A stretch of 64,000 nt of DNA, from NCBI GenBank assembly GCA_017412765.1, contig JAFPWN010000015.1:286-64285 (forward strand), read 5' to 3'. Every line of letters starts with the position of its first letter. Within the stretch, counting starts at the first letter, position 1. The stretch comes from Oscillospiraceae bacterium. Lineage in GTDB: Bacteria > Bacillota > Clostridia > Oscillospirales > Oscillospiraceae. Position numbers and translations under genes: made by a program. Below the pieces are notes generated by a model that did no database searches, had not been told where the DNA came from, and saw nothing but the letters and a program-made list of their open reading frames with translations. Below are positions 11,275 to 24,633 of this stretch, in pieces.

Positions 11275-11367
11275 TAGTTTAAGAATGTGCAGAAACACCC
11301 ATAAGAAAAGCAAAAAAATATTTCTAATGGGGCATTTTAAAGAGTACTAAAGTGAGCGATTGACGCT

Positions 11368-11925
11368 ATGTTCGTAATGTATAAAGAACCGATTGAAAAG
11401 GGTCTTATCGGATACGCCGGTCAGCTCGGCAAGGATGTTAACGATTTGGCAGATGACGAAATAATGTACGTAGTGGAAAAGGTCGCGGAGATTGCCGGTG
11501 AAGTCGGCACAAACATCATTATGCAAGGTCAGCATGTGCCGGAACTTTTCGGTTTTTCGACACAAATTCCGCAGCACGAAGACTTTTCAGCCAAACTGTC
11601 AGCCGACAAAATCAACTTCCATAAAAAATGGACTCACTCCGATACTAAACTCGGAGCGCCGCTCTTTTTCAGTGAGTTATCCGAAAATGAAGCAACCGAC
11701 ATTGAAGGTGCCAGAAATTTCTTTGGAAGTAATCCCGGTATGGAAATAAAGTATAATTTCCTGCGTGATGAATACGCTAAGATACTTGACGGAATCGACA
11801 GGGAGATATATTATTTATCTGAGTAGGGATACAAGCAAAAAGAAATCGCTAAAAAACTCGGATACAGCAATCACTCCGCCGTTTCAAAGCGGATGAAAAA
11901 GATAAATAAAGATTTTCAGGAATTC
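11368..11925 (+). pseudogene. Mobile-element sigma-70-like / HTH protein gene interrupted by an in-frame TAG
   Basis: The ORF ends ..ILDGIDREIYYLSE at TAG 11824-11826. The same frame continues GYKQKEIAKKLGYSNHSAVSKRMKKINKDFQEF, a typical sigma region-4-type HTH, so the DNA-binding part is cut off. No clear RBS at 11368. Confidence 0.6.
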
Positions 11926-12219
11926 TTAGGTTTTAAGTACCCATTCCATTTGATTTTGTGCCTTGAGGTCTTCGGTAATTCCGTCGGCTGCGGCGTATTC
12001 CTTTATCAGCCTGTCGAACAGCTCGTTTGCCGCTCTGTCAGTTTCCTCTAGGTGAGCGTTTAGAGTGCCGCCGAGAAACATTCCGGTGTAAATTGGATTT
12101 CTGTTCTTCCGCAGGAACTCTTTTCTTCGTCTGCCCCAAACTCCGATGTTCGGCTCTTTCGGCGCTGTAAGGTCAGGAATGAGATAGTCTCCCCCGTGGT
12201 GGTATGTGATTTCTGCCAT
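11926..12219 (-). pseudogene. tnpV: Truncated TnpV-family transposon protein
   Basis: MAEITYHHGGDYLIPDLTAPKEPNIGVWGRRRKEFLRKNRNPIYTGMFLGGTLNAHLEETDRAANELF..QMEWVLKT*. The TnpV N-terminal signature (ITYxxxGDYLIPxL) is recognised from memory. It ends about 20-25 aa short of the usual C-terminus, exactly where it meets the converging sigma-like remnant. Confidence 0.6.
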
Positions 12220-12285
12220 TTTGATGCCCTCATTTTAGGTTGTAGGCTCATCATAGCAGAAAAAGATAGAAATGACGAATGTGCG

Positions 12286-12324
12286 AAAAAAGCCCGAAGA
12301 TTGCATCTCTGCAACCTTCGGGCT
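12286..12324 (-). terminator. Rho-independent terminator-like hairpin (minus direction)
   Basis: AAAAA-AGCCCGAAGaTTGCAtctctTGCAAcCTTCGGGCT. The A-run on the plus side becomes a U-run for minus-strand transcripts coming from the tRNA/repeat side. Confidence 0.5.
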
Positions 12325-12409
12325 GAAACTAAATATTCTCTAAATCTTCCAGATAAGCAAGAAATCCGAACGCTGCTCCGATCGGAACAAAGTTCGGATT
12401 TCTATGCTT

Positions 12410-12701
12410 TGGTGGAGACTGACAGGCTCGAACTGTCGAAGCCGACGCTTGTGCGTCTGCTTCTCTTTTCCGCTTTGCTCAATTTGAGGTCGACAACGTT
12501 CGAGCCTCGCACTTTTTCGCAACAAAAAAGCACCCCCGACGGGGTGCTTTTTTGTTGGTGGAGACTGACAGGCTCGAACTGTCGAAGCCGACGCTTGTGC
12601 GTCTGCTTCCCTTTTCCGCTTTGCTCAATTTGAGGTCGACAACGTTCGAGCCTCGCACTTTTTCGCAGCAAAAAAGCACCCCCGACGGGGTGCTTTTTTG
12701 T
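12410..12701 (-). repeat. Two tandem 146-bp direct repeats, each starting with the last 30 nt of tRNA-Val (att-site-like scars)
   Basis: Units 12410-12555 and 12556-12701 differ at 2 positions. Each begins (plus strand) TGGTGGAGACTGACAGGCTCGAACTGTCGA, identical to 12702-12731 inside the intact tRNA-Val. Each ends with the hairpin AAAAAAGCACCCCCGACGGGGTGCTTTTTT. The period of 146 continues into the tRNA. Confidence 0.9.
12670..12699 (-). terminator. Bidirectional rho-independent terminator just downstream of tRNA-Val (copy also at 12524-12553)
   Basis: A6-GCACCCC-cgac-GGGGTGC-T6, 3 nt after the tRNA-Val CCA end. Confidence 0.8.
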
Positions 12702-12778
12702 TGGTGGAGACTGACAGGCTCGAACTGTCGACCTCACGCGTGTGAGGCGTGCGCTCTAACCAGCTGAGCTAAGCCTCC
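12702..12778 (-). tRNA. tRNA-Val (anticodon CAC)
   Basis: Reverse complement GGAGGCTTAGCTCAGCTGGTTAGAGCGCACGCCTCACACGCGTGAGGTCGACAGTTCGAGCCTGTCAGTCTCCACCA. The cloverleaf folds by hand, with anticodon loop CTCACAC and an encoded CCA. Confidence 0.93.
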
Positions 12779-12784
12779 GTTTAT

Positions 12785-12859
12785 TGGTGACCCGGACGGG
12801 ATTTGAACCCGTGTTACCGCCGTGAAAGGGCGGTGTCTTAACCGCTTGACCACCGGGCC
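12785..12859 (-). tRNA. tRNA-Glu (anticodon TTC)
   Basis: Reverse complement GGCCCGGTGGTCAAGCGGTTAAGACACCGCCCTTTCACGGCGGTAACACGGGTTCAAATCCCGTCCGGGTCACCA, with anticodon loop CTTTCAC. Confidence 0.93.
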
Positions 12860-13012
12860 TCGTCGTTTGAAGCTCGCTTCACTCCGTTTCGGCGCTGAAG
12901 GACGCGCCAAAACTCCGTATCCGCTCCCTCCAAACTCCTCTTCAAGACGAACCCGCTTTGCTGGGCTTCGTCTTGATTTTGAGTAAAAGAGTGCCTCGCA
13001 CATACATATATC

Positions 13013-13040
13013 AAAAAGGGGTGCGAAAGCACCCCTTTTT
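13013..13040 (-). terminator. Hairpin terminator directly after tRNA-Met
   Basis: AAAAAGGGGTGC-gaaa-GCACCCCTTTTT, flanked by A/T runs on both sides. Confidence 0.75.
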
Positions 13041-13042
13041 GA

Positions 13043-13119
13043 TGGTAGCGGCGACTGGATTCGAACCGGTGACACCGCGGGTATGAACCGCGTGCTCTAG
13101 CCAACTGAGCTACGCCGCC
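13043..13119 (-). tRNA. tRNA-Met (anticodon CAT, elongator type)
   Basis: Reverse complement GGCGGCGTAGCTCAGTTGGCTAGAGCACGCGGTTCATACCCGCGGTGTCACCGGTTCGAATCCAGTCGCCGCTACCA. Resembles the Bacillus elongator Met rather than initiator (no CGCGGGG start) or Ile2. Lysidine-Ile cannot be fully excluded. Confidence 0.85.
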
Positions 13120-13136
13120 GTAATGAGGCAAGAGTT

Positions 13137-13165
13137 ATTATACCCATCTGCCACTTAATTGTCAA
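13137..13165 (-). promoter_or_regulatory. Consensus sigma-A promoter for the tRNA cluster
   Basis: The minus strand reads TTGACA-N17-TATAAT, ending about 17 nt upstream of the tRNA-Met 5' end. Confidence 0.8.
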
Positions 13166-13223
13166 GAACTTTTTTACTATTGTGGAAAAAGAATTTATAT
13201 GGTACAATTCAGCCGGTGATACT

Positions 13224-13877
13224 ATGGATTTTCACGCGAATGCGGAGCATTTTATGCGCGATATGCGCTACCGCACCAAAATCATGCTCTATGTCAGCTT
13301 CACGCTGAACCTGATCTACGCCCTTGTGAAGCTGACTCTCGGCATCTGGGGCAACACCGTATGGGATATAGTTCTCGCGCTCTATTACATGGCGCTGGCG
13401 CTTATGCGCTTCGTCGTTCTGCGCACGGCGCGCGGTACGGAATTCGGCTCATTTCCCGAGGGCGAATACCGCATTTACCGCTTCGTCGGCGCGGTACTGC
13501 TTTTTATGAACCTTCTCCTCTCCGTCATGGTCGCCGCGTATTTGAGGCGCGAGGTGAGCTACAACTACTCCCTCATTCGATTGATCATAATGGCGGCTTA
13601 CTCCTTCTGGAAGATAATCTCAGCCACAGTTGCCGTCGTGCGCTCACCGCGCCAGCACTCCCCGCTCTACTCCTCGGCAAAAAATATCTCCCTCGCCGCG
13701 GCGCTCGTTTCCATGCTCTCGCTTGAGGAGGCGATGCTCGAATCGTTCTCTACCGACCCCGCGTTCCGGGATACGATGGTCGGCGCGACGGGGCTCGTTT
13801 CCTCGCTTATCCTCATCTCGCTCAGCGTTTATATGATCACCCGCGCAACACTGTTTCTCAGGAGACGCAGAAAATAA
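13224..13877 (+). CDS. Multi-pass membrane protein, function unknown
   Basis: The track ORF starts at GTG 13182, but TTGTGG-N17-(TGg)TACAAT at 13180-13208 sits inside it, so I prefer the ATG at 13224 (MDFHANAEHF..). About 5-6 hydrophobic helices. Confidence 0.65.
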   Translation: MDFHANAEHFMRDMRYRTKIMLYVSFTLNLIYALVKLTLGIWGNTVWDIVLALYYMALALMRFVVLRTARGTEFGSFPEGEYRIYRFVGAVLLFMNLLLSVMVAAYLRREVSYNYSLIRLIIMAAYSFWKIISATVAVVRSPRQHSPLYSSAKNISLAAALVSMLSLEEAMLESFSTDPAFRDTMVGATGLVSSLILISLSVYMITRATLFLRRRRK

Positions 13878-14242
13878 AAAATGCGAAGACTCACGGAATG
13901 ACGCTTGTCGCGATTACCTGCCTCGCACTCACTCTGCTTATGATCCTGATTGAAGAGGTCGACCTCTCCGCGCCTGTTTCCGGCTCTGAGGGCTGAGTGA
14001 TCCGGCCGCCGGATAACGGCTGCCGTTACCTCGACGTGAGCCTTATGACAGACGAGGGCAAAATGTGCTTTATGCATAGCTTCACAAACGGCAAGGAATC
14101 GGTTTTCAACGGCAATCTGACTTCAGGGGCAAAAACATATCTGACGGTGAATTTCCAATCCGAATTTGCGGCTCAGCGGCACCGATCCGAATAGCCGGAT
14201 GATAGTAGATTTCGGCACAGCACAGCTTGCAAAAACGATTTA

Positions 14243-14403
14243 ATACTAACCCCTGATTAAAAGCTTTAACCGAGCGCGCAGAATTTTTTGCGTCATACAA
14301 GGCGTCCGGTGCAGACAATACTTTGTGTATTATCAAGCCGGATAACGAAGTATGACGCGAAAAGGGCAAGCGCGAATTGAAGATTTTGATTAGGGGTTAG
14401 TAT
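14243..14403. repeat. 161-nt imperfect palindrome (rod-like hairpin); MITE-like element or structured RNA
   Basis: The outer arms ATACTAACCCCTGATTAA and TTGATTAGGGGTTAGTAT pair over 18 positions including G-U. Inner helices are GCGTCATAC/GTATGACGC (14290-98 / 14350-58), TCCGG/CCGGA and AATAC/GTATT, around the apical loop TTTGT at about 14322-14326. Confidence 0.6.
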
Positions 14404-14514
14404 AATTTTCAAATGAATGAGCACACCGTTTCCGATGTGCTCATTCTTTCATGCCGTTTTGCCCTTGCCAATGTCTTTATCTTAATGACATTGCCGAATC
14501 GGGTGCGTTTTTTG

Positions 14515-17500
14515 TTATCCGGTGCCGTTAATCTCGCCGCGCCAGCCGGTATCGGTTTTCTTGACGTAACCGACGCGGTGCATCACGAGCGTGCCCTCAG
14601 GCGGCTCCTCCTCCAGCGCTTCTCCACCGTGAGCAATATGTTCCTCATACGTTATAGTGTTGCCTGCCCAGGTTTCGCTTGAGTTATACGCTCTATCGCC
14701 GTCCGGAGTAAAGAATACGGTTGCAAAGAAAGCCCAATTTCCTTCTCCGCTCTCAGAAACGCCGCTGATTTTGACTCTCACATTCTCCTTGAACTTGAAA
14801 ACGCTGTTTTCAGACAGATATGGGCGCGGCTCAAACACGTTTTCGACTATGACCTTCGCCGCATCTATGGGGTCTTTCAGAAAATCCGGAGCATAGTCCA
14901 CAATCGGAAGCACTGCTAGTTCGCAGTGGTCAAGCCATTGCCGGGCAATGTAATACGGTGTTCTCCACTCTTCGTCTGCCCTTAACAGCATATTGTCTAT
15001 CTTGACAAGCGTTTCATCGTTCTTAAAGAATAGCAGCACAGTGCCGTCCTTAGCCGTTATACGCACGTCCTGCGTATCTGTCTTCGGCGTACCCGAATAT
15101 GGCTCATAAGTGAAGGCAGAAAGGCCTCCCGCAAAGCCCATTGCATTCGTGACGCTGTCAGCAAAGTAGTTCGTTCTGTCGCCGTTAAACTGTATCATCG
15201 CGCCGGCGGGGTCTTGTACAAGTCCGAAAAGCGGTGCCATCACGCTGTTTTCCAAAAGGCCATGAGCATAGTCGCCCGCCGGCGTACTGCTGCCGTTCCA
15301 CGCCGCAAGCTCGACGGTCTGCACATTGTAGCCGTCCGTTAATCGTACAATGTTCGTACCCTGCCAGAAGTCAAGTCTCGCACCGCTCACTTTCACCGTG
15401 ACCGGTTCGGAATCCGGCGCCGCCGCGCTGCCGACGACGTAATAATAGCGCTTTATAATGTCGAGAGCGCTGTAAAAGTCCGGTATATCCCCCGCCTTGC
15501 CGATGCTCTTTCCTCCGTACTCAACCTCCGGCTCGCCAAAATGACCGTACGCCGCCCGCGCAAGGTAAATATCGACGAGGGTATTAGTCTGCTTCACCGG
15601 AGTTATACCGGGGTGTTCTTTAAGGAACTCTGAAATGCCCTCCCTCCAGAACCACTCCTGAATCTCTTCGAACTCGGCTAAGTCGCCCTTCTCGAAGGTC
15701 AAGTCCGTCGGCTGGCGGAGAGCGTACCAGGCGTTGCCGCTCCAGCCGAAAAGCGTAACGCCGGACATATCGCCCGCCACGCTCGCGCGGTACTCCTCCT
15801 CAGAATAGACGTCGAACGAGGCAAGCCACCCCGTAAGCCCAGAGTCAGCTCCGGAGGTAGTCACACCCCACTCCCAGGTGGGCTTGTAGTAGAAATCCGA
15901 GCCTATCGTCATTACCGAGTCGCGGTACTTTTCGGGAAGCTCCAACGTCGCGGGCGCGCGATAGGTCATAACGGCGTCGTAGTCCTTGACAAGCGCGAGG
16001 TCAGCATCCGGCACCTCGCAGATAACGAACCAGCTCTGCATCGCGGAATTGTAGCTCTCCAGCGAATTTGTCTGATAAACGCTCAGAGTAAAGCTGCCGC
16101 CCTCGATCGTTACAGACTCCACATCGTAGCGGAAGTCGGTGCTGCCCGCGTCGAAGCACACCGTTATAAGGCTGTTTTCGGCAAAAAACGCCTCGTTGTA
16201 CTTTGAGAGCGCCTCACTGACGCTGTCAGTAAAGCCGTACTTCTCCGCGTTGTTATCGAGCTGCGCCTTCGTGTCGAATCTCCTTATCGGCAGGTGCCTG
16301 ACGGAGCTGATTGCAAGCTTCTCGGAATTGAACGCTATCCACTTTCCCGCGCTGTCAACGTACCCTCCCCTGACGATACGGGTGGAATAGTTCTTCTCAA
16401 CAAGGCTGTACCACTTCGCGTCATCCTTCGCCCGCTGAATGCCCATGTAGTTTTCATAAACTCTTTGGCTCACCTCGCCGTTGTCCTCGAGGTAGTATTT
16501 GCCGCCCTCCTGCCACGCCTTGGATTTGAGCGCGCAGCCGGTTTCATTGAAGATCGCGCGGTTTGCCGAGCCGTCGGTGAGCGTTATCGTGCCGTCGGAC
16601 TTGATCGCGTTAACTCTGTCATATCCCCCAAACACCGCGCAGTAGTATTCGCCGCCGTATTCGTAAAGCACCGCATATGAGCGCGAAGTGGAGCCTCTGC
16701 GCTGGCTCGAAAGATACAGAACGCACTCATCGTCGCCGTCGCGGTCGAGGTCAACGAGGGCGTAGCTCGACGGAGCGTAATAATACAGCTCGTCGTCGGA
16801 AACGGCGCGGGTAATACCGTCTATCTTCATCTCCTCGCCGGTTCTGGCGGCAATAAAGCTCTTCGTGCCGTCGAGGATCGCCTTATACGCCCATTCGAGG
16901 AACCATTCCGGCTCTGCGTCAAGTCTGAAAACGCTCCCGTCGCGGAAGAAGCCGCCCCAGACGTATTCCGGGCTCTCGTCAGCGTTAAAGCGAAGCCCCT
17001 CGTCCGTTATGGTGAAGATATACCCGCCGACGTCGAGTCTGTCGCCGTCTACGGAGTAGTTACCGATAAAGATATAGCTTGAAATCGGTGAGAAAATTAA
17101 CTGCGCCGTGCCGTCAGAGTTTATCGTGAGCGCGGAGTCGTTATATTTATAGGTGCCATAGGCAAGCGCCGCCCCGCCCGAGGTCACGCTCCGCAGGTAA
17201 GCGGCAAAATCATTGTCCTCGACCTTATAGCGCTCGTTGTTGAATATGACCTCGACCATATCCCGCTCGGCGGAGTAGCCGTTGAAGTAAATATATTCGT
17301 AGCGCGAATATTTGTTGGTGCCGCTGAGCTTCACGCATATCTGATATGCCGGAGTGAAGCCCGCGTACTCATCGCTTTTAGTGAGGCGCTTAATGCCGTT
17401 GGCGCGCTCGATGAGCACGTTTATCTGCGTCTTGCTCAGCGCAAAATCGCCCTCGCGCTCGAACTGATTGAACGCCCTCGCGCTCTCGACAGTCCATTTT

Positions 17501-18894
17501 GTGAGCTTGAACACGCCGTTGCCGTCCTTAGGATTTCCGACGAAGTAATCATACGCCGCGTTGAAGTTTTCAAGCTTCATATCGCCTACGAAGCTGTCCT
17601 GATTCATCGCCTCGGCTTGTATCGACGCCGGGAACTTCGCCCTTATGTCCTCAGCGTAGTAGCTCCCGTCGCGCGGCTCCCAGTATTCAAGCACCGGATA
17701 AGTGCTGCTGTCGCTGTTGTCCGAGGTATCGAACGTGACCGCGACCGGCGCGCTCGAGCCGTAGAGCGTGATCACCTCGCCGTCCTCATAGCCGAAGCCC
17801 TCGCTCAGTACCCAGGCGTAGACCGTGGTTTTGCCTCTTTGTCTGTCGATTCTGAAAACCTTAGACGAATAGGTGAAGAACTCCCCGCGCTCTTTGTCAT
17901 CGTTATGCTCCGCCACCGCCATATCCATCGAAACGCCGAGCTTGCCCTCGAGCTTTTTAGAGGGGTTAGTCATGAAGCAAACGGCGATGACTATGCTTAC
18001 CACAATGGCGGCAATTATTATCCAGAATGCCGGCTTTTTGTAGCTCAGCGCCGCCTTAACGCGCTCCTTGACCCCCACCTCGCCGAAGGCGAGCGGACAC
18101 GCCGCGATCACTCTGCGGTTCAGCGAGCAATCTAAGAGCGCCTGAGAGTACGCCGCGACGGACTCTCTGTCCATATCGCGTATGACCTTTTCATCGCAGG
18201 CAAGCTCTATATCCCGGCAGAGGAGAATATACGCGACCCAGCAGAGAGGATTGAACCAGTAAAAAGAGAGTATCGCGTAGCCGAGGGGCTTCCACCAATG
18301 GTCATGACGAGCTAAATGCGCCCGCTCGTGCGCTAATACCTGCTCGACCGTGTTCATAGGCAGCTTCGACGGAAGATAGATGATCGGTTTGAATATGCCG
18401 AGAATGAACGGGCTTTTAATATCGTCGCAGACTCTTGCGCCCTCGCCCGCGGGTACGGACGCAGCAACGGTTTTTCGCACTCTCAAATAACTTACTATCG
18501 CATAGGCAAGCATCGCCGCAATTCCTGTAAGCCATACTGCCGACGCGACCGGAACCCAGAGCTGTAACGGGTTCATGCTCGCCTCCGGAGCCGGCGCAAG
18601 TGAAGATTCTGCGATCGCGGGATTTACCGCCTCGTTTACTATCGGTATGCCGGAGTCTATACGCGGAGCGGGCATCATCTCCACGTTCTGCGGCACCGTT
18701 TCCGCGCTCGGCACTAAGCTTGCCTTGCTCTCGATGGATATGGGCAGGCAGAGCCTTATCGCCACAAGCGCCCACAGCGCGCATACTATCCATTTCGGAG
18801 CGCGCTTCATAAGCGGTCTTGCGACGATCACCGCTAAAATGAGCCAGCTTGCGGTTATCGAGAGATTTACAACGCCTAAAAAGAATTCGCTCAT
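14515..18894 (-). CDS. BlaR1/MecR1-type M56 peptidase sensor with a 1150-aa non-PBP extracellular region
   Basis: 1459 aa. N-terminal TM bundle with VLAHERAHLARHDHWWK (HExxH, M56 signature) and ..ELACDEKV. The rest has no penicillin-binding motifs that I can see. ATGA overlap with the upstream blaI-like gene. Confidence 0.85.
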   Translation of the reverse strand: MSEFFLGVVNLSITASWLILAVIVARPLMKRAPKWIVCALWALVAIRLCLPISIESKASLVPSAETVPQNVEMMPAPRIDSGIPIVNEAVNPAIAESSLAPAPEASMNPLQLWVPVASAVWLTGIAAMLAYAIVSYLRVRKTVAASVPAGEGARVCDDIKSPFILGIFKPIIYLPSKLPMNTVEQVLAHERAHLARHDHWWKPLGYAILSFYWFNPLCWVAYILLCRDIELACDEKVIRDMDRESVAAYSQALLDCSLNRRVIAACPLAFGEVGVKERVKAALSYKKPAFWIIIAAIVVSIVIAVCFMTNPSKKLEGKLGVSMDMAVAEHNDDKERGEFFTYSSKVFRIDRQRGKTTVYAWVLSEGFGYEDGEVITLYGSSAPVAVTFDTSDNSDSSTYPVLEYWEPRDGSYYAEDIRAKFPASIQAEAMNQDSFVGDMKLENFNAAYDYFVGNPKDGNGVFKLTKWTVESARAFNQFEREGDFALSKTQINVLIERANGIKRLTKSDEYAGFTPAYQICVKLSGTNKYSRYEYIYFNGYSAERDMVEVIFNNERYKVEDNDFAAYLRSVTSGGAALAYGTYKYNDSALTINSDGTAQLIFSPISSYIFIGNYSVDGDRLDVGGYIFTITDEGLRFNADESPEYVWGGFFRDGSVFRLDAEPEWFLEWAYKAILDGTKSFIAARTGEEMKIDGITRAVSDDELYYYAPSSYALVDLDRDGDDECVLYLSSQRRGSTSRSYAVLYEYGGEYYCAVFGGYDRVNAIKSDGTITLTDGSANRAIFNETGCALKSKAWQEGGKYYLEDNGEVSQRVYENYMGIQRAKDDAKWYSLVEKNYSTRIVRGGYVDSAGKWIAFNSEKLAISSVRHLPIRRFDTKAQLDNNAEKYGFTDSVSEALSKYNEAFFAENSLITVCFDAGSTDFRYDVESVTIEGGSFTLSVYQTNSLESYNSAMQSWFVICEVPDADLALVKDYDAVMTYRAPATLELPEKYRDSVMTIGSDFYYKPTWEWGVTTSGADSGLTGWLASFDVYSEEEYRASVAGDMSGVTLFGWSGNAWYALRQPTDLTFEKGDLAEFEEIQEWFWREGISEFLKEHPGITPVKQTNTLVDIYLARAAYGHFGEPEVEYGGKSIGKAGDIPDFYSALDIIKRYYYVVGSAAAPDSEPVTVKVSGARLDFWQGTNIVRLTDGYNVQTVELAAWNGSSTPAGDYAHGLLENSVMAPLFGLVQDPAGAMIQFNGDRTNYFADSVTNAMGFAGGLSAFTYEPYSGTPKTDTQDVRITAKDGTVLLFFKNDETLVKIDNMLLRADEEWRTPYYIARQWLDHCELAVLPIVDYAPDFLKDPIDAAKVIVENVFEPRPYLSENSVFKFKENVRVKISGVSESGEGNWAFFATVFFTPDGDRAYNSSETWAGNTITYEEHIAHGGEALEEEPPEGTLVMHRVGYVKKTDTGWRGEINGTG

Positions 18895-19262
18895 TTTGTC
18901 TCACCGTCTCTGAATGCGTCTATCATGCTCTGAATCTCGTCGGCCTCAGCTCTTGTCAGCTCCCTGCGGCTGATAAACGCAGCGATAAAAGCCGGAAGCG
19001 AGCCGTCGTAGCTCTCGGAGACAATCTGCTCAGACTTGCGCGAATAGAACTCCTCCTTTGAAACGAGGCTCGTAACGACGCCGTTTTCGTTTTTGAAGAG
19101 CCCCTTTTCGCACATCTTGCGAAGCACCGTGTATGTAGTCGGCTTTTTCCAGTTAAGCTCTTTTTCACAGATCTTCACAAGCTCGCCGGACGGCACCGGC
19201 TCATTTGCCCACACGAGGTCTGCAAATCGCTCCTGCACCGCTCCGATCTCAAAATCCGCCAT
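18891..19262 (-). CDS. BlaI/MecI/CopY-family winged-helix repressor (module 1)
   Basis: 123 aa with family-typical size and layout: ..VWANEPVPSGELVKICEKELNWKKPTTYTVLRKMCEKGLF..VVTSLVSKEEFY. RBS AAGGAGGAG. Confidence 0.85.
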   Translation of the reverse strand: MADFEIGAVQERFADLVWANEPVPSGELVKICEKELNWKKPTTYTVLRKMCEKGLFKNENGVVTSLVSKEEFYSRKSEQIVSESYDGSLPAFIAAFISRRELTRAEADEIQSMIDAFRDGETK

Positions 19263-19501
19263 AGTAAGCTCCTCCTTAATAATAATTTTATACTAAAAGC
19301 TGTAATGTCCATCCGGCGGAGTCTGCACTTCCTCAAAGCTGTCCACAGTCGCCCTCCGACAGATAACGCTCATACTGCGCTCTGTTCAGCTGCCATATTG
19401 AAAACAGCTTTCATGCCGTTTAGCCCTCAGCCTTGGCTGCGTCGTAAAAGCTGCAATAAAAGCTCCCGCCGGTTTGATCTGCATCACGTTTTGCCTCCGT
19501 T

Positions 19502-19549
19502 GGTTTATCCTTGTAAACCGAGTTTATCACGATAAACCACGCTTGTCAA
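19502..19549 (-). promoter_or_regulatory. Promoter plus two 6-N6-6 operators for BlaI/BlaR1 module 1
   Basis: The minus strand reads TTGACA-N17-TAAACT (plus TGTCAA 19544-49, AGTTTA 19521-26). Dyads GGTTTA-tccttg-TAAACC (19502-19519) and AGTTTA-tcacga-TAAACC (19521-19538) cover the -10 and the start-site region. Confidence 0.6.
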
Positions 19550-19568
19550 CAGTTTTTTCAAAATTCTC

Positions 19569-19622
19569 TTGACAGATAAAGATTACTGTGATAATCTTCT
19601 AATTAGATTATTGCAATAATCT
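19569..19622 (+). promoter_or_regulatory. Promoter plus two 6-N6-6 operators for BlaI/BlaR1 module 2
   Basis: TTGACA (19569-74)-N17-TAATCT (19592-97). Dyads AAGATTA-ctgtga-TAATCTT (19579-19598) and AGATTA-ttgcaa-TAATCT (19605-19622, a perfect 18-nt palindrome), just upstream of RBS GGAGG and ATG 19643. Confidence 0.65.
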
Positions 19623-19642
19623 TTCTGAAAGGAGGTAAAATA

Positions 19643-20014
19643 ATGAGTAACGCCGAAAAGATCGTCGATTCCGAGCTTGAGGTGATGAAGCTGCTGTGGG
19701 CGGCGGGTGAGCCGATGGGGCTCAGCGAGATAATCGCAGTTCTGACCGAAAAGCTCGACTGGAAGGAGCCGACTGTCAAGACCGTAGTCCGAAATCTGCG
19801 CCTCAAGGGCGCTATCGAGCAGGTCGGGCGCGGTAAATACGCCGCCGTCGTGACCGAGCGCGAGTACAACGAGTTCTCCGCAAGGAGCTATGTGAACAGA
19901 ATATTCGACGGAAGCGCAAAAAAGCTCGTCGCAACCCTTGTTTCCGACGGTCAGCTGACCGAGGACGAGGTAGCCGAGCTTCTCGAAGCTCTGCGAGGTG
20001 GCAAAAATGGATAA
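19643..20014 (+). CDS. BlaI/MecI/CopY-family winged-helix repressor (module 2)
   Basis: 123 aa: SELEVMKLLWAAGEPMGLSEIIAVLTEKLDWKEPTVKTVVRNLRLKGAI... The recognition-helix region differs from module 1. Overlaps the downstream sensor gene by 17 nt. Confidence 0.85.
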   Translation: MSNAEKIVDSELEVMKLLWAAGEPMGLSEIIAVLTEKLDWKEPTVKTVVRNLRLKGAIEQVGRGKYAAVVTEREYNEFSARSYVNRIFDGSAKKLVATLVSDGQLTEDEVAELLEALRGGKNG

Positions 20015-22682
20015 GCTGCTTTACGTATCGCTCGAGGGCGCAGTTCTCGCCGGGATCGTCTTTCTCATAAAGGCACTCGGCGCCAAAAGGCTCTCAAAAT
20101 CTTTTCTTTACTACATCTGGCTTCCGGTTCTGCTGAGGCTTCTTCTGCCCGTAGGCTTCGAGGTGGGCGTGATACCGAAAAGCGCGCCTGAGCCGGCGCC
20201 GTATATGACAGTCGAGCGCGCGGAGCCTTACGAAGCGCCGATAATAATCTCAAGAGCGCCGGTCGAGGTCGAGGCAGCTCCGACAGTGCGAAGCTTTGAC
20301 TGGCACAGTCTGATTATTCCGGCATATGCCGCTCTCTCCGCGGGTATCTTCCTCTTCCACGCAATAGCGTATATCGTTTTTCTCCGGAGGCTGAAGAGCG
20401 GTCTTGAGTATGTACAGGCGAGCGGACGGCTCAAGGTGTATCTCTCAAAAACCGCTGAAACTCCGATGCAGGTGGGCGTTCTGCGCCCGATGATAGTTCT
20501 TCCGAAGCGGCACTACGAGCGCGAGGAGCTTGACCTCATACTGGCGCACGAAACGGTGCATTGGCAGCGCCGCGACCTCGTTATAAAGTGGCTCATGCTG
20601 GCTGTGAGAAGTCTGCACTGGTTCAATCCCGTAGTGTACTTCATCTCGCGCGACCTCGACAGAAGCTGCGAGATGAGCTGCGATGAGGCGGTCTGCCGCT
20701 CTCTCGACGAGGACGGCAGAATGCGCTACGGCGAAACGCTGATCTATATGGCGTCCGCCGCTCGTCTGCCGGTGCGCGTTCCGGCGGCTACGCTCGTTGA
20801 GAACAAAAAGGCGCTGAAAGCCCGTATAATCGCCATCCGCGACTATAAAAGAGTGACGATCGTGGCGGTTTGCGCTATGGTTGTACTTGCGGCTGTTCTA
20901 TGCGCCTGCTCCGCGATTATTCCGGGCGAAAAGCAGGAGGATGAGATCGAAGTTGTGGAAAAGCCGGTCGTTGTAGAGCTTGCCGAGACCACGGACGAGT
21001 CCGAGGCAGCCGCCGTCGCCGCGCTCAAAGATCACGTTATGCTGTTCGCTCACAAGGGCACGAACGCCGTAGTCGAATACGAGGTCCTCGGCTCCGAGAA
21101 GAGCGATGACGGCATGGAATACCTCATCGTCTATATGCTCTCGGAGTACTCTCCCTATTCCAAAGTATATATCTACGGCGACGCAAAGGCGGCGAAGGTC
21201 ACGGGCAGCGGCAGAACGGCGTATATCGAGTTTTTTGACACCCGCGACGAGCTTGCGGATATTCTCTCCGCTCCGATCGACCTTGACAGTAACCGCACAA
21301 TAGCAAAGGATTACCGCGACGAGCTTAAAGAGCGCGCGAATGCAGACCTCAGCACCGAGAACAACGAGTGGTACGCGCCGGAAAACTACGGTCTGACCAC
21401 GCCCTCCGAGGATTACAAGCGCATCAGCGAGCTAACCGACGAGCAGGTCATCGTGATGTTCCTCAACTGCTACGATTCTTACGACGTCAAGGCGCGCAAC
21501 GAGCTGTGGAAGCGTATGACCGTCGATTACGACGCGGTCAAGGCTGCCGCGGACGCTCTCAGCGGCAAGCCCTATCGCGGCGGCGATATCAACTCTTACC
21601 TCGAGCCGATATTCACCGAATTTGATCCCGACCTGTTCACGGTCACCGATAAAGGCGGAACACTCGCTCCGGAAACCACGTACTACGCACCCGGTGAAGC
21701 GCCCGAGGGAAGCAAGATATATATCTTCTTCACCCTCAACAAATACTGCTACGTCAGACAGAACGGCGACATCATCACCTACTGCTGCTTTGGCGGCGAC
21801 GATTGGTATGAGGTGAGGAATAACAGCGACGTGCTGATCGATGGGCAGTGGCAGGATCTTTACGAGGCGGCAAGAACGCGCGGAATCGACCTCGTTTCGT
21901 CTTCGCCGGCGGCGGACGTTGATGGCTTGCCTGATTTTACCGAAATGCAGACTGACGAGCTGTGCGAGTATTATCTCAAAGCCGACGGCGCGTATGCCGA
22001 AGGTTCGGCTTTTGAGCTGTACCGGAGAGCGCTTTCCGACCCTTCCGGTGTGCTTAAATCCATTCATTCTGTGAAGACCGGAAACAACCGCGCAGTGAAC
22101 ACTCTGCTTGCCCCGCTTATTTTCGAGGACCTGGAAAACCGTCCCGCCGGCGCGTTCGGCGGCGCTCTCTATAACGAGTTTATGCAGTTGGGCGACGAGG
22201 CGGCTGAAATGTACGTAACTGCCGCAATCAGCAAAAACACTATCCGGCTGACGGCTTCCGAGAAATATGAGGAGGATTTCCCGACCGACGGCGTGCGCGT
22301 GACATACGATCCCGGCGATAATCTGTTCACCGTGATCAGCAAGGACGGGAGCAGGTATGAAAGCAAAATAATACTCGGCAGTTCGGAGAAATCCACGTCC
22401 GGAAACGATACCTTCTTCATCGCTTATAACGGCATGCAGGCAGGCGTTTATAACCAGGCCGAGAACATTCGTGAGATAACAGTCCGCAAGAACGAAACGC
22501 TCATTCTCACCGCAGAATCAGAGCTTATTTCAGCTGACGGCAAATTTAATTGGTCAAGCTCCGACGACAGTATTCTCAAAGTCAATGAGGGCAAGATAAC
22601 GGGCATCGCAAAAGGCATAGCGTTTCTGGTATTAAGGTCGGGCGACCTTTCCGACTCTATTCTCGTGCGCGTCACGGAATAA
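19998..22682 (+). CDS. BlaR1-type M56 peptidase sensor with a 600-aa extracellular region ending in a Big_2-like Ig domain
   Basis: 894 aa with LILAHETVHWQRRDL (HExxH), ..SCEMSCDEAV. The C-terminal ..SSSDDSILKVNEGKITGIAKGIAFLVLRSGDLSDSILVRV resembles bacterial Ig-like group 2. Confidence 0.85.
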   Translation: MAKMDKLLYVSLEGAVLAGIVFLIKALGAKRLSKSFLYYIWLPVLLRLLLPVGFEVGVIPKSAPEPAPYMTVERAEPYEAPIIISRAPVEVEAAPTVRSFDWHSLIIPAYAALSAGIFLFHAIAYIVFLRRLKSGLEYVQASGRLKVYLSKTAETPMQVGVLRPMIVLPKRHYEREELDLILAHETVHWQRRDLVIKWLMLAVRSLHWFNPVVYFISRDLDRSCEMSCDEAVCRSLDEDGRMRYGETLIYMASAARLPVRVPAATLVENKKALKARIIAIRDYKRVTIVAVCAMVVLAAVLCACSAIIPGEKQEDEIEVVEKPVVVELAETTDESEAAAVAALKDHVMLFAHKGTNAVVEYEVLGSEKSDDGMEYLIVYMLSEYSPYSKVYIYGDAKAAKVTGSGRTAYIEFFDTRDELADILSAPIDLDSNRTIAKDYRDELKERANADLSTENNEWYAPENYGLTTPSEDYKRISELTDEQVIVMFLNCYDSYDVKARNELWKRMTVDYDAVKAAADALSGKPYRGGDINSYLEPIFTEFDPDLFTVTDKGGTLAPETTYYAPGEAPEGSKIYIFFTLNKYCYVRQNGDIITYCCFGGDDWYEVRNNSDVLIDGQWQDLYEAARTRGIDLVSSSPAADVDGLPDFTEMQTDELCEYYLKADGAYAEGSAFELYRRALSDPSGVLKSIHSVKTGNNRAVNTLLAPLIFEDLENRPAGAFGGALYNEFMQLGDEAAEMYVTAAISKNTIRLTASEKYEEDFPTDGVRVTYDPGDNLFTVISKDGSRYESKIILGSSEKSTSGNDTFFIAYNGMQAGVYNQAENIREITVRKNETLILTAESELISADGKFNWSSSDDSILKVNEGKITGIAKGIAFLVLRSGDLSDSILVRVTE

Positions 22683-22729
22683 TCCAACCGGCAGTTTATA
22701 AATCTACTACTGTTTTAGTATGGATTTTT

Positions 22730-22769
22730 CATCGCCTCCCATCTATAATGCAGTCAAAGGGAGGCGATG
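22730..22769 (+). promoter_or_regulatory. 11-bp hairpin that pairs the RBS of the XRE gene; TATAAT lies in its loop
   Basis: CATCGCCTCCC-atctataatgcagtcaaa-GGGAGGCGATG followed by taaATG (22773). TATAAT is at 22744-22749, with a weak -35 TGGATT 17 nt upstream. Confidence 0.5.
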
Positions 22770-22772
22770 TAA

Positions 22773-23546
22773 ATGAACATCGGAGAAAAGCTCAGAGCAC
22801 TCAGAAAATCGAAAAAGCTCACGCAGGAGGCGCTGGCGGAGTTTATGAACGTCTCGCCGCAGGCAGTGTCGAAGTGGGAGACCGGCGCGTCAAGTCCTGA
22901 TATTGATATGCTTCCGGCACTCGCGGCGTTCTATGAAACGACGGTGGACGATCTTCTCGACTTCGACCGCAGGCGCATCAACGCCGAGGTGGACGCGATA
23001 GTCACTCAGTCCGTGCCGCTGAGGAGCGAGCCCGAAAAAGCGGAGGCATTTTACCGCGAGGCGCTAAAAAAGTACCCGAATAACGAGGTGCTGTTAAACT
23101 GCCTGCTGATGGTGATACCGAACGAGCGGCTCAGCGAAAAATTAGAGCTTGGCGAGCGGCTTTTGGAGAGCAGCGCCGACGATGAGATACGGCTCGACGT
23201 GCTGCGGCTTCTGGCTCTCTCGTGCCGCGCTTCGGGCGAGCGGAGGATGGCGGAGCATTATCTCTCGCGCCTGCCGGAGCTGTACTTTCTTAAAACCGAA
23301 GTCGCGGCGGCGATTCTCGATGGCGAAGCGCAGAAGGACGAGATCAGAAAAACCGAGGACGTCTGCCTATGGACGCTGTGCGCGATGATCAAGCGCCGCG
23401 AGGCGATAAGCGAGGACGGCGCGAGGTTTTCCGACCTCTTCGACCGCGTAATAGACCTCTTTCGAGCATGTCCGGAGTACGCTCCGCTTGCCGACAGAGT
23501 CGATAAAAGTCTGCGCGGCGCCGACGTGAACAAGCTGTATATGTGA
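22773..23546 (+). CDS. XRE-family HTH regulator with a TPR-like C-terminal domain
   Basis: MNIGEKLRALRKSKKLTQEALAEFMNVSPQAVSKWETGASSPDIDMLPALAAFYETTVDDLL is a classic HTH_3. Helical repeats follow. Confidence 0.85.
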   Translation: MNIGEKLRALRKSKKLTQEALAEFMNVSPQAVSKWETGASSPDIDMLPALAAFYETTVDDLLDFDRRRINAEVDAIVTQSVPLRSEPEKAEAFYREALKKYPNNEVLLNCLLMVIPNERLSEKLELGERLLESSADDEIRLDVLRLLALSCRASGERRMAEHYLSRLPELYFLKTEVAAAILDGEAQKDEIRKTEDVCLWTLCAMIKRREAISEDGARFSDLFDRVIDLFRACPEYAPLADRVDKSLRGADVNKLYM

Positions 23547-23551
23547 AAAAA

Positions 23552-23696
23552 ACGCAGCAGAATGCAAAAAAGTGTCATTCCGAGCCGGTGCTCACACCGG
23601 CGTGGGAATCCGTAATACCCTTAATGCAGTGGGAAACGGATTGCCACGGCTCCTTGCGGAGCCTCGCAATGACACTCGACGAGCATTCTGCTGCGT
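23552..23696. terminator. Bidirectional terminator stem enclosing a 100-bp nested palindromic (REP-like) element
   Basis: Outer perfect 14-bp stem ACGCAGCAGAATGC (23552-65) / GCATTCTGCTGCGT (23683-96), flanked by an A-run and a T-run. Inside, 23574-23673 is an inverted pair of about 38-nt units (GTCATTCCGAG-CCGGTGctcaCACCGG-CGTGGGAATCCGT / ACGGATTGCCACG-GCTCCttgcGGAGC-CTCGCAATGAC). Lies between convergent genes. Confidence 0.7.
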
Positions 23697-23700
23697 CTTT

Positions 23701-24633
23701 TTATGCTCTTTCCCTGACAAAATTCGATGACTTCGGGAAGATGAAATTCACGCCCTTCGGTATGAGCTTCATCGTAACGTCCCTTGTGTACATCGCCTCT
23801 CCGTCGATATTGACGACAAACTCCTGCGGCGCGGTGACTCGCAGGCGCGTGCCGCCGATGTGCTTTATGAAGTCCGGGTGCTTGTAGTAAAGCCCGGTCG
23901 AGTAGTCGCCGAGAAGCGCCGCGAGCTGTATAAGATTCACCTTTTTGATGATAAGTATATCAAGCACGCCGTCGTCCACGACCGCCGTGCGCGTCGGATT
24001 GAAGCCGCCGCCGTAGTATTTGCCGTTGCAGCAGCAGGCGAGCGCGAATTTGCCGCTCATCTCGCCCTCCTCAGTCTCAAAGGTGAAATCGGAGTTTATG
24101 CCCTTAAAGATATTCGCTACGAGGCTCGGTATGTATCCGCCCTGTATTTTGCCCCACAAGGGATGCCCGGAATACTTGTGTACGTCCGTGCCGATGCGCG
24201 CGTCCACGCCGACCGAGGCGATGTCGAGGCACTTGCGCCCGTTTACGTCGATGAGGTCTATCGGGAACACAGCGCCGTCGATAAGCTCGTCGAGCGAGCG
24301 GAACAGCTCCGTATCGCCGTCGAAGCTCTTTATAAAGTCGTTGCCGGTGCCGCAGGGAAAATGCGTGACGGCGCAGTTGGAAAAGCCCGCCGCGCCGTGG
24401 GCGCACTCGGAAACAGTTCCGTCGCCGCCGCAGGCGTAGACCCTCAGTTCCTCGCCCTTCTGTGCCTCGCGTCTGACCTTTTCGGCGGCGTCCATCGGCG
24501 CGGTGGTGTAGTAGATCTCATATTCAGCGCCGCGAAGGATCATCTTCTCCTCAATGAGCGCCTTCACACCGGATTTCGACTCGTCTGAGCCCGCCTTGGG
24601 ATTGAGTATAAAGAGATGCTTCATCCTTTTCAC
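23701..24633 (-). CDS. Diacylglycerol/lipid kinase family protein (YegS/BmrU type)
   Basis: 310 aa with a GTG start: FILNPKAGS.., ..VYACGGDGTVSECAHG (GGDGT motif). Confidence 0.85.
   Translation of the reverse strand: MKRMKHLFILNPKAGSDESKSGVKALIEEKMILRGAEYEIYYTTAPMDAAEKVRREAQKGEELRVYACGGDGTVSECAHGAAGFSNCAVTHFPCGTGNDFIKSFDGDTELFRSLDELIDGAVFPIDLIDVNGRKCLDIASVGVDARIGTDVHKYSGHPLWGKIQGGYIPSLVANIFKGINSDFTFETEEGEMSGKFALACCCNGKYYGGGFNPTRTAVVDDGVLDILIIKKVNLIQLAALLGDYSTGLYYKHPDFIKHIGGTRLRVTAPQEFVVNIDGEAMYTRDVTMKLIPKGVNFIFPKSSNFVRERA

Follow-up and report, generated by a model that had tools for sequence, protein, structure and literature searches.

The best described relatives of the locus analyzed here are the BlaR1-BlaI and MecR1-MecI systems of Staphylococcus aureus and Bacillus licheniformis, in which a protein with four transmembrane (TM) segments and a cytoplasmic M56 gluzincin domain acts with a winged-helix repressor of ~123 amino acids that carries a C-terminal dimerization helix. 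In the bla and mec systems paired dyad operators lie over the promoter and transcription diverges from a shared control region. The S. aureus BlaR1/MecR1 paradigm, together with the cryo-EM entries 8exp-8ext, is the source of the mechanism proposed below. We analyzed a 64-kb stretch of DNA from an Oscillospiraceae bacterium (contig JAFPWN010000015.1; "the window", whose numbering is used for all coordinates) which, at positions 14515-22682, contains two divergent operons, each consisting of a Penicillinase_R repressor gene followed by a Peptidase_M56 membrane protease gene, as judged from open reading frame (ORF) calls and Pfam. The locus shares with the known systems the topology, the aligned HExxH and downstream Glu of the protease, the size and fold class of the repressor, and the paired dyads over divergent promoters. 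Unlike BlaR1 and MecR1, its proteases lack a class-D-beta-lactamase-like sensor and carry uncharacterized ectodomains of 590 and 1150 aa. We consider it probable that these are two paralogous, independently wired, non-canonical BlaIR proteolytic signaling modules in the chromosome of a rumen member of the Oscillospiraceae.

Proteases of this general kind have recently been surveyed on a large scale. Among ~15,000 M56 proteins, 254 domain architectures were distinguished, the commonest being M56 with a C-terminal region without an identifiable domain; a transpeptidase (TP) domain was found in only ~6% of the proteins and was missing from ~94%, and for ~96% a BlaI-like gene lay no more than 5 genes away (Kurtz et al., J Bacteriol 2026, PMC13492132). 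The first-pass annotation of this DNA, made from the sequence alone, had presented the TP-less sensors as novel, which was an overestimate given their ~94% share of the family (PMC13492132). Because TP-less M56 proteins are already the majority class, our locus is an ordinary member that adds detail and not a new phenomenon. CenIR of Clostridioides difficile likewise combines, within the Clostridia, an M56 protein and an upstream BlaI-like repressor with the absence of a TP domain, and the same organism has two further BlaIR-like pairs close together, cdr_2276/2277 and cdr_2279/2280 (PMC13492132). In contrast to CenIR, the proteases of our locus have very long ectodomains, with at least two confidently folded domains in the first of them and purifying selection in all segments tested. 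In the portions of the sources available to us, repressor/M56 protease pairs with functions unrelated to beta-lactam resistance are described as BlaIR of Mycobacterium tuberculosis and M. abscessus (within PMC13492132) and as PvmSR of Pseudomonas aeruginosa (bioRxiv 10.64898/2026.08.03.742534), and a repressor and an M56 protease operate the protease-mediated cytochrome c6/plastocyanin switch of Synechocystis (bioRxiv 10.1101/2020.07.31.226407). According to these portions, the functions under atypical BlaIR control are virulence, metabolism or a cofactor switch; these systems belong to other phyla, have other ectodomains and outputs, and are described there without a large mosaic ectodomain or a paired divergent layout.

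In each module the repressor gene precedes the protease gene and overlaps it (Table 1). The overlap is 4 nt in module 1, where the stop codon of blaI-1 and the start codon of the M56-1 gene share ATGA, and 8 nt in module 2 when M56-2 is started at ATG 20007. This ATG is the likely start, as a GAGGTGG ribosome-binding site lies ahead of it and gene callers made the same choice in relatives. The overlaps imply that translation of repressor and protease is probably coupled. In the staphylococcal bla and mec operons blaR1 or mecR1 comes first; here the repressor gene does, and the divergent partner is a second module and not blaZ or mecA. The first-pass annotation had reported two divergent repressor/M56 modules with 123-aa repressors and overlapping genes, and the ORF positions and Pfam matches agree with it. 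The modules are old paralogues, with 27% identity over the M56 domain and 29% between BlaI-1 and BlaI-2. The ectodomains, which had been called large and mutually unrelated, are indeed 1150 and ~590 aa long and showed no similarity to each other by BLASTP, with hhalign giving only E 0.48. This hhalign pairing joined a helix-plus-sheet stretch of each protein (M56-1 ~341-367, M56-2 ~355-384); we considered a domain common to both ectodomains on this basis and do not claim homology.

Both repressors matched Penicillinase_R (PF03965) far above its cut-off of 22.6 bits (BlaI-1, E 8.2e-20, 71.7 bits; BlaI-2, E 3.4e-23, 82.6 bits). Alignment to MecI (1sd6; E 4.7e-07 for BlaI-1 and 4.1e-10 for BlaI-2) placed A95-F96 of BlaI-1 and T98-L99 of BlaI-2 opposite MecI N101-F102, the cleavage position of that repressor. 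The CopY/TcrY model (TIGR02698) scored 33.6 and 69.5 bits, below its cut-off of 121.95. CopY is defined by a C-terminal Cys-rich metal site, CxCx4-5CxC; BlaI-1 has cysteines only at C32 and C51 and BlaI-2 has none.

The protease parts are well conserved. M56-1 matched Peptidase_M56 (PF05569) with E 4.6e-40 and its HExxH reads HERAH. Hydropathy placed four TM segments, as in BlaR1, at residues ~3-26, 33-56, 112-137 and 285-313, so that a cytoplasmic HERAH protease part (residues 1-310) is followed by the ~1150-aa ectodomain; against PDB sequences, M56-1 matched BlaR1 (8exs/8exp) over residues 154-295 only. M56-2 matched Peptidase_M56 with E 3.8e-49, its HExxH reads HETVH and it also has four TM segments by hydropathy. 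Residues H181, E182, H185, E222, C225 and D226 were invariant in an alignment of 61 homologues (A3), and a profile of this alignment found S. aureus BlaR1 (8exp) in the PDB with E 9e-27, the HExxH and the downstream Glu aligning to HEYAH...E. In the AlphaFold2 (AF2) model of M56-2 the M56 part had a predicted local distance difference test (pLDDT) score >85, and Foldseek searches of the PDB with this model returned BlaR1 structures only (8exq, E 2.4e-07; 8exr_A, TM-score 0.66). The zinc sites are intact in both proteins, with HERAH or HETVH plus the downstream Glu, in keeping with the HExxH noted in the first reading of the sequence.

The first-pass annotation had also seen no penicillin-binding sensor in either ectodomain, and every search that we made led to the same conclusion. 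The Transpeptidase/beta-lactamase family (PF00905) gave no Pfam match in the whole proteins or in ten isolated ectodomain segments at E<=5. The NCBIfam model NF000326 (blaR1_generic) matched only over model positions ~154-327 of 585, with 71.6 and 94.2 bits against a cut-off of 400, and PDB sequence searches aligned BlaR1 over the protease part only in both proteins. Foldseek returned no match resembling a penicillin-binding protein (PBP) for the M56-1 or the M56-2 model, and a motif scan found no ordered SxxK/SxN/KTG triad in either protein. A hidden sensor with a PBP or beta-lactamase fold was rejected on the combination of Pfam, NCBIfam, PDB sequences, Foldseek and the motif scan. No linked beta-lactamase or PBP2a/PBP gene was present among the adjacent genes. 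Without the sensor domain, the curated score and a target gene, the locus falls outside the beta-lactam sensor family. In every feature that can be tested it belongs to the broader non-canonical BlaIR family: each module encodes a PF05569 protein without PF00905 and has a PF03965 gene within 5 genes and, as is usual, upstream.

The control region was examined next to that of relatives. The two repressor genes are 380 bp apart, the distance given in the first-pass annotation for a shared control region. In four related loci (L001, L002, L009, L010) the intergenic form is 158 bp, which, judged from the alignment, is the ancestral or common control region and the functional shared core; the remaining ~223 bp of the window are a lineage-specific insert, so that the distance was correct and only the 158-bp core of it is functional. 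Within this core two promoters, P1 for module 1 and P2 for module 2, stand back-to-back with 19 bp between their -35 boxes. Each carries two dyads of 16-18 bp, GTTTAT-N4-RTAAAC in module 1 and AGATTA-N6-TAATCT in module 2. Chance alone would give 0.03 copies of the P2-type 18-mer in the window, which holds 2. In four related lineages the only change within the four dyads and the two -35 boxes was one A/G position in one P1 dyad, and the P2 dyads were invariant in all relatives, across lineages in which flanking genes had diverged to a dS of 0.2-0.6. No further copies of P1- or P2-type dyads were found elsewhere in the 64-kb window or in the fetched loci (~310 kb), the scan for target genes having reached ±10 kb of each locus.

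To assign the dyads to the repressors we fetched four unpaired loci of M56-1 type, which have no module-2 partner (L014/15, L016/17, L018, L023/24). The BlaI proteins of L014, L016 and L018 share 69-72% identity with BlaI-1, and their recognition helix is nearly the same. Upstream of the BlaI-1-like genes all four loci have the arrangement TTGACA-N6-GTTTATnnnnRTAAAC, a gap of 7-10 nt (7 nt in L018, 10 nt in L014/L016/L023) and a second GTTTATnnnnRTAAAC. This co-variation of the GTTTAT dyads with BlaI-1-like repressors ties them in cis to the BlaI-1 lineage. The same promoter geometry is seen in a more distant paralogue (L025/26; L025 4567-4640), there with GTCTAC/GTAGAC half-sites, a difference that looks like operator re-specification among paralogues. 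For module 2 only distant relatives exist, which have TTAC/GTAA-type dyads (GGTTACaaaaGTAATCC and TTACACGTGTAA) upstream of their own repressor genes, so that the P2 dyads are assigned to BlaI-2 by position and exclusion. Both dyad classes occupy the same 16-bp frame with a shared TTAT-N4-ATAA core and differ at the symmetric position 2/15 and at the center (GTTTATCACGATAAAC vs GATTATTGCAATAATC). Comparison of the two dyads makes it plausible that the modules are orthogonal despite the common core, and insulation between them is likely. Each repressor combines a PF03965 domain above the gathering score with dyads overlapping its promoter, as members of the family do, and from this we infer operator binding.

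Of the four unpaired loci, one (L018, 2630-3998) has a gene for a family 43 glycoside hydrolase (GH43) between the operators and blaI, overlapping the start of blaI; from this arrangement the GH43 gene is probably part of the same operator-controlled operon. Another unpaired module (L014, 3558-7156) lies inside a region resembling a conjugative element, with ArdC, TTRAP, a topoisomerase and a giant helicase/methylase. In L016 (7090-9092) an ECF sigma factor and a serpin follow the module.

We next examined the ectodomain of M56-1. Full-length orthologues were found in P0001, P0002, L009 and L010. The first ~450 aa were 45-60% identical to more than 100 90%-identity clusters among the matches listed, these being M56 proteins of 800-1200 aa from Oscillospiraceae and Clostridia metagenomes. 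The conserved ~450 aa comprise the M56 core, the extracellular loop between TM2 and TM3 and a membrane-proximal domain that we call domain A. By these sequence comparisons M56-1 is a member of a very large Clostridia/Oscillospiraceae subfamily in which core, loop and domain A are conserved and the distal domains form a variable mosaic. Across 57 subfamily members the extracellular loop and domain A contained many nearly invariant columns, while the distal parts varied. In the AF2 model domain A had a pLDDT >90 and consisted of a helix packed against a long, curved antiparallel sheet. No Pfam family matched it. Foldseek searches of the PDB with the M56-1 ectodomain model gave nothing below E 0.01, and weak matches to NTF2/VirB8/TraM/ARC6-like structures (E ~0.1, probability up to 0.96). 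We tentatively attribute the NTF2-like matches to domain A, the output having carried no query coordinates, and regard domain A as a putative transducer domain. The subfamily also has a nearly invariant PLAFGE, which by profile alignment corresponds to the loop of BlaR1 that contains F284, the residue mutated in PDB entries 8exs/8ext; this correspondence is indirect, as M56-1 itself was not part of alignment A3.

For the distal 1009 aa of M56-1 a word-based homologue search found only the orthologues as full-length relatives. An exhaustive HMMER search (497 matches) resolved this region into a mosaic of at least 5 separately distributed domains. The most widespread, here called C4, has the motif ISSV(Q/R)HLP(I/V)(Y/F)xFD...YD..FF...GWF...FDA (alignment A7) and forms the body of hundreds of stand-alone Clostridia lipoproteins of ~180-210 aa (P0243-P0386), being duplicated in P0243, for example. 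The C4 domain (~145 aa) was modeled with a pLDDT >90 and had no relative in Pfam, NCBIfam or the PDB, which makes it a candidate new domain family. AF2 confidence for the M56-1 ectodomain was low outside domain A and C4, with ~57% of the model having a pLDDT <50.

The ectodomain of M56-2 has a much narrower distribution, being present only in P0121-P0124, L009 and L010, which form one small clade. Two helical regions were modeled with moderate confidence by AF2 and about half of the ~590 aa had a pLDDT <50. The first-pass annotation had ended this protein in an Ig-like domain. Two M56-2 orthologues carry a precomputed PF02368 match in agreement with this, but the protein's own Big_2 match at the C-terminus (~22473-22616) was weak, with E 0.077 in the whole protein and 0.0033 in the isolated segment, and in neither case did it reach the gathering score.

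Comparison among relatives showed that both ectodomains are maintained and that their distal parts are exchanged. The ratio dN/dS was 0.04-0.39 in all segments of both proteins (0.04-0.29 in M56-1), and such purifying selection indicates functional proteins and not decaying ORFs. The tip of M56-1 was 45-70% identical in amino acids to sister lineages, compared to 85-98% over all other residues, and was absent from P0003. Its dS was 1.35-1.56, 4-5 times the 0.2-0.5 found elsewhere, with a dN/dS of 0.26-0.29. High dS combined with low dN/dS points to an older allele exchanged by recombination; positive selection on the tip was considered and ruled out by the same values. In M56-2, segments 536-639 or 634-803 were wholly present or wholly absent among close relatives. 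The recombined tip of M56-1 and the gain or loss of segments in M56-2 together indicate that the core is fixed and that the distal parts are exchanged like cassettes. Mosaicism was also suggested by the comparison with P0001 (98% identical), in which residues ~800-1459 of M56-1 are 100% identical and the differences lie in the N-terminal half.

By analogy with BlaR1/MecR1, each repressor dimer would, in the resting state, occupy the two dyads of its own promoter and hold down expression of its own operon. A cue from outside the cell would act on the ectodomain and be relayed through domain A and the TM2-TM3 loop to the cytoplasmic protease, which would cleave or inactivate the cognate repressor, with cleavage predicted near A95-F96 in BlaI-1 and T98-L99 in BlaI-2. 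This would de-repress the module itself and any unlinked genes with the same dyads. The cues would be other than beta-lactams, and the distal ectodomain modules would serve as exchangeable "antennae".

Observed directly are the genes present, the catalytic residues, the topology, and the layout of promoters and dyads, with their conservation. Several points weigh against two independently wired proteolytic modules. Cleavage of the repressors, their binding to the operators and the ligand are predictions, and the residues at the predicted cleavage positions (A-F in BlaI-1, T-L in BlaI-2) differ from the N-F of MecI and BlaI. Low AF2 confidence over most of both ectodomains leaves the fold-based exclusion of a sensor type incomplete there. 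No regulated target gene was found within ±10 kb in any locus, so that the output could be the modules alone. Finally, the insert of 223-278 nt separates P1 and its operators from blaI-1 in the window and in same-species contigs, and it holds weak promoter-like sites (19311-19279) that could bypass repression. A beta-lactam or other cell-wall antibiotic might be sensed through a highly diverged penicillin-binding domain hidden where fold comparison is blind, that is, where the pLDDT is <50 (~57% of the ectodomain model in M56-1, about half in M56-2). We find this scarcely credible, since a PBP-like domain of ~250 aa would have been detected by sequence despite the poor models, and neither Pfam (including the segments at E<=5), NCBIfam, PDB sequences nor Foldseek gave a match; moreover, no ordered triad and no adjacent beta-lactamase or PBP gene was found, and the segments that do have homologues belong to uncharacterized non-PBP families.

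The back-to-back promoters, with so short a distance between the -35 boxes, would also suit a cross-wired toggle in which BlaI-1 represses P2, BlaI-2 represses P1 and the two modules are mutually exclusive, and the frame and core shared by the dyad classes make some cross-binding conceivable. However, the GTTTAT dyads occur in cis with BlaI-1-like repressors, in the same promoter geometry, in four loci that have no second module, and TTAC/GTAA dyads precede the repressors' own genes in the distant module-2 relatives. The association in cis of GTTTAT dyads with the BlaI-1 lineage supports self-repression over a toggle, which we rate as very improbable. A somewhat less remote, still unlikely, explanation is that the ectodomains are mainly effectors that bind or adhere to plant fiber, the host or neighboring cells, with BlaI/M56 autoregulating their expression or M56 serving as an anchor. 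Such a role would fit the lack of separate target genes nearby and a long mosaic that includes C4, a domain also found in free lipoproteins, as well as the lipocalin-like hint (DUF5640, E 0.11) and the Ig-like end; distal modules are swapped between close relatives in the manner of surface proteins, and the GH43 gene of L018 is probably in an operator-controlled operon. The strict conservation of the zinc site, the coupled repressor gene and the operators would then be hard to explain without proteolytic signaling, and the co-conservation of the membrane-proximal domain and the loop with the protease points to a transduction path. Sensor and effector roles are, moreover, not mutually exclusive. 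On this evidence we favor two self-repressing proteolytic sensor modules.

The usual interpretation of BlaIR systems is that they switch antibiotic resistance; most of the family does not, and this locus is a clean example, ready for comparative genomics. Specific to it are the long, folded, mosaic ectodomains, the pairing of two modules back-to-back, each with its own operator class, and the clear operator grammar of the M56-1 type; new are the 158-bp core with paired dyads, the lineage-specific insert, the GTTTAT dyads at unpaired loci and the anatomy of the M56-1 subfamily. More speculatively, and with much less confidence than in the modules themselves, we raise the possibility that the M56-1 type constitutes a very large repertoire of one-pass proteolytic receptors in Oscillospiraceae/Clostridia of the rumen and gut, with a fixed core (M56 protease, extracellular loop and a possibly NTF2-like domain A), swappable distal "antenna" cassettes and paralogue-specific half-sites (GTTTAT, GTCTAC, AGATTA...) that would insulate each paralogue. 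If so, BlaIR modules would be used in the way that Bacteroides use hybrid two-component and anti-sigma systems, sensing extracellular macromolecules such as plant glycans; the GH43 gene behind BlaI operators in L018 would be one hint of this, and the pair in the window would represent two channels placed back-to-back. For a specialist the locus holds no surprise after the 2026 survey, and its use is as a well-resolved example and as a lead into a large uncharacterized receptor subfamily. It offers experimental handles in its defined promoters, two operator sequences, conserved transduction core and two confidently folded, uncharacterized extracellular domains. If the ligands were found, a so far unannotated layer by which abundant Clostridia of the rumen and gut sense their environment would become accessible, and the operator pairs could serve as orthogonal repressor/operator parts.

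Table 1 Features of the two-module locus and its surroundings, in window coordinates.
Feature	Position	Strand	Description
M56-1	14515-18894	minus	1459 aa; BlaR1-like membrane zinc protease
BlaI-1	18891-19262	minus	123 aa; winged-helix repressor
BlaI-2	19643-20014	plus	123 aa; winged-helix repressor
M56-2	20007-22682 (longest ORF 19998-22682)	plus	891 aa from ATG 20007, 894 aa from GTG 19998
Promoter P1	19503-19549	minus	-35 TTGACA 19549-19544; 17-nt spacer; TG-n-TAAACT, -10 19526-19521
P1 dyad GTTTATCACGATAAAC	19522-19537		overlaps -10 box (repeat search)
P1 dyad GTTTATCCTTGTAAAC	19503-19518		just downstream of P1 -10 (repeat search)
Promoter P2	19569-19622	plus	-35 TTGACA 19569-19574; 17-nt spacer; extended -10 TGaTAATCT 19589-19597
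P2 dyad AGATTACTGTGATAATCT	19580-19597		overlaps -10 box (repeat search)
P2 dyad AGATTATTGCAATAATCT	19605-19622		downstream of P2 -10 (repeat search)
Insert, module-1 leader	19271-19493 (~223 nt)	minus	between blaI-1 ribosome-binding site and P1
Domain A of M56-1 (residues ~319-454)	17533-17940	minus	co-conserved with M56 core across subfamily
M56-1 residues ~460-576 and ~1015-1210			also present in other M56 proteins (HMMER)
M56-1 residues ~580-657			lipocalin-like hint (DUF5640 E 0.11)
M56-1 residues ~668-836			DxDxDG loop; relatives include an FG-GAP-annotated protein
C4 domain of M56-1 (residues ~833-977)	15964-16398	minus	commonest target among 497 HMMER matches
Distal tip of M56-1 (residues 1201-1459)	14518-15294	minus	divergent allele vs sister lineages
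M56-2/XRE spacer elements	22683-22772	plus	dyad TACTA-N6-TAGTA 22705-22720; TATAAT 22744-22749; 11-bp perfect hairpin 22730-22740/22759-22769
XRE-type HTH gene	22773-23546	plus	257 aa; HTH_3 E 1.5e-15, weak TPR_14 match

The insert in the leader of module 1 was absent from L001, L002, L009 and L010. It spans 278 nt in L003-L005, contigs of the same species, and there contains an intact ORF of 56/57 aa (MQIKPAGAFISAFLCAAIISGC...; L003 9308-9481) with a lipoprotein-type signal (…AAIISGC…). The copy in the window has lost 36+16+4 nt, which broke the ORF and left a remnant at 19386-19487 on the minus strand. CCTCC repeats flank the insert junctions, and the insert may be what is left of a cargo gene that was once co-regulated. 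A repeat element was considered and rejected, there being no other copy in the window. A 20-nt stretch just downstream of the M56-1 stop (14446-14465) matched insert positions 19408-19427 at 95% (blastn E 0.004 within the window), which may be due to chance.

The same head-to-head pair was found in the Oscillospiraceae metagenome-assembled genomes RGIG3191 (goat reticulum) and RGIG5036 (roe-deer rumen), in two Logan contigs (L001, L002) and in several ENA contigs that belong to the window's species (L003-L007, 97-98% identity). The right flank is syntenic in all of them, with the XRE regulator, a DAG-kinase-like gene, an RlmL-like methyltransferase, a HAD hydrolase and UvrD. Orthologous loci with a syntenic right flank indicate that the pair is a stable chromosomal feature of a small clade.

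The first-pass annotation had seen no obvious target genes beside the modules. This stands insofar as none with an operator was found within ±10 kb, but the XRE gene trails M56-2 after a nearly invariant spacer and is syntenic in L001-L008 and L010. This spacer of 90 nt is more conserved across lineages than coding DNA. Its hairpin (-33 kcal/mol, z -3.98) has the ribosome-binding site of the XRE gene as its 3' arm and holds the TATAAT in its loop, and a promoter/terminator scan found no terminator-like site between M56-2 and the XRE gene. With a hairpin over the ribosome-binding site, read-through from M56-2 might be translationally silent for the XRE gene, and transcripts starting after the TATAAT would not be. 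From this arrangement the XRE gene is possibly associated with module 2 in function.

The left flank is variable. It consists of a tRNA cluster and family-less ORFs in the window and of DUF2461, MutS2, HPr and UvrC in L001. The cluster, tRNA-Val(CAC)/Glu(TTC)/Met(CAT), lies at 12702-13119 on the minus strand to the left of the modules (ARAGORN), and an Rfam scan of 13000-24000 gave one tRNA. The left-flank ORFs at 9727-13877 (515, 152, 145 and 231 aa among the surrounding ORFs) had no Pfam or PHROG match. G+C falls to 0.46-0.49 at 8-12 kb, and this flank, lying beside the tRNAs, may be an insertion hot spot.

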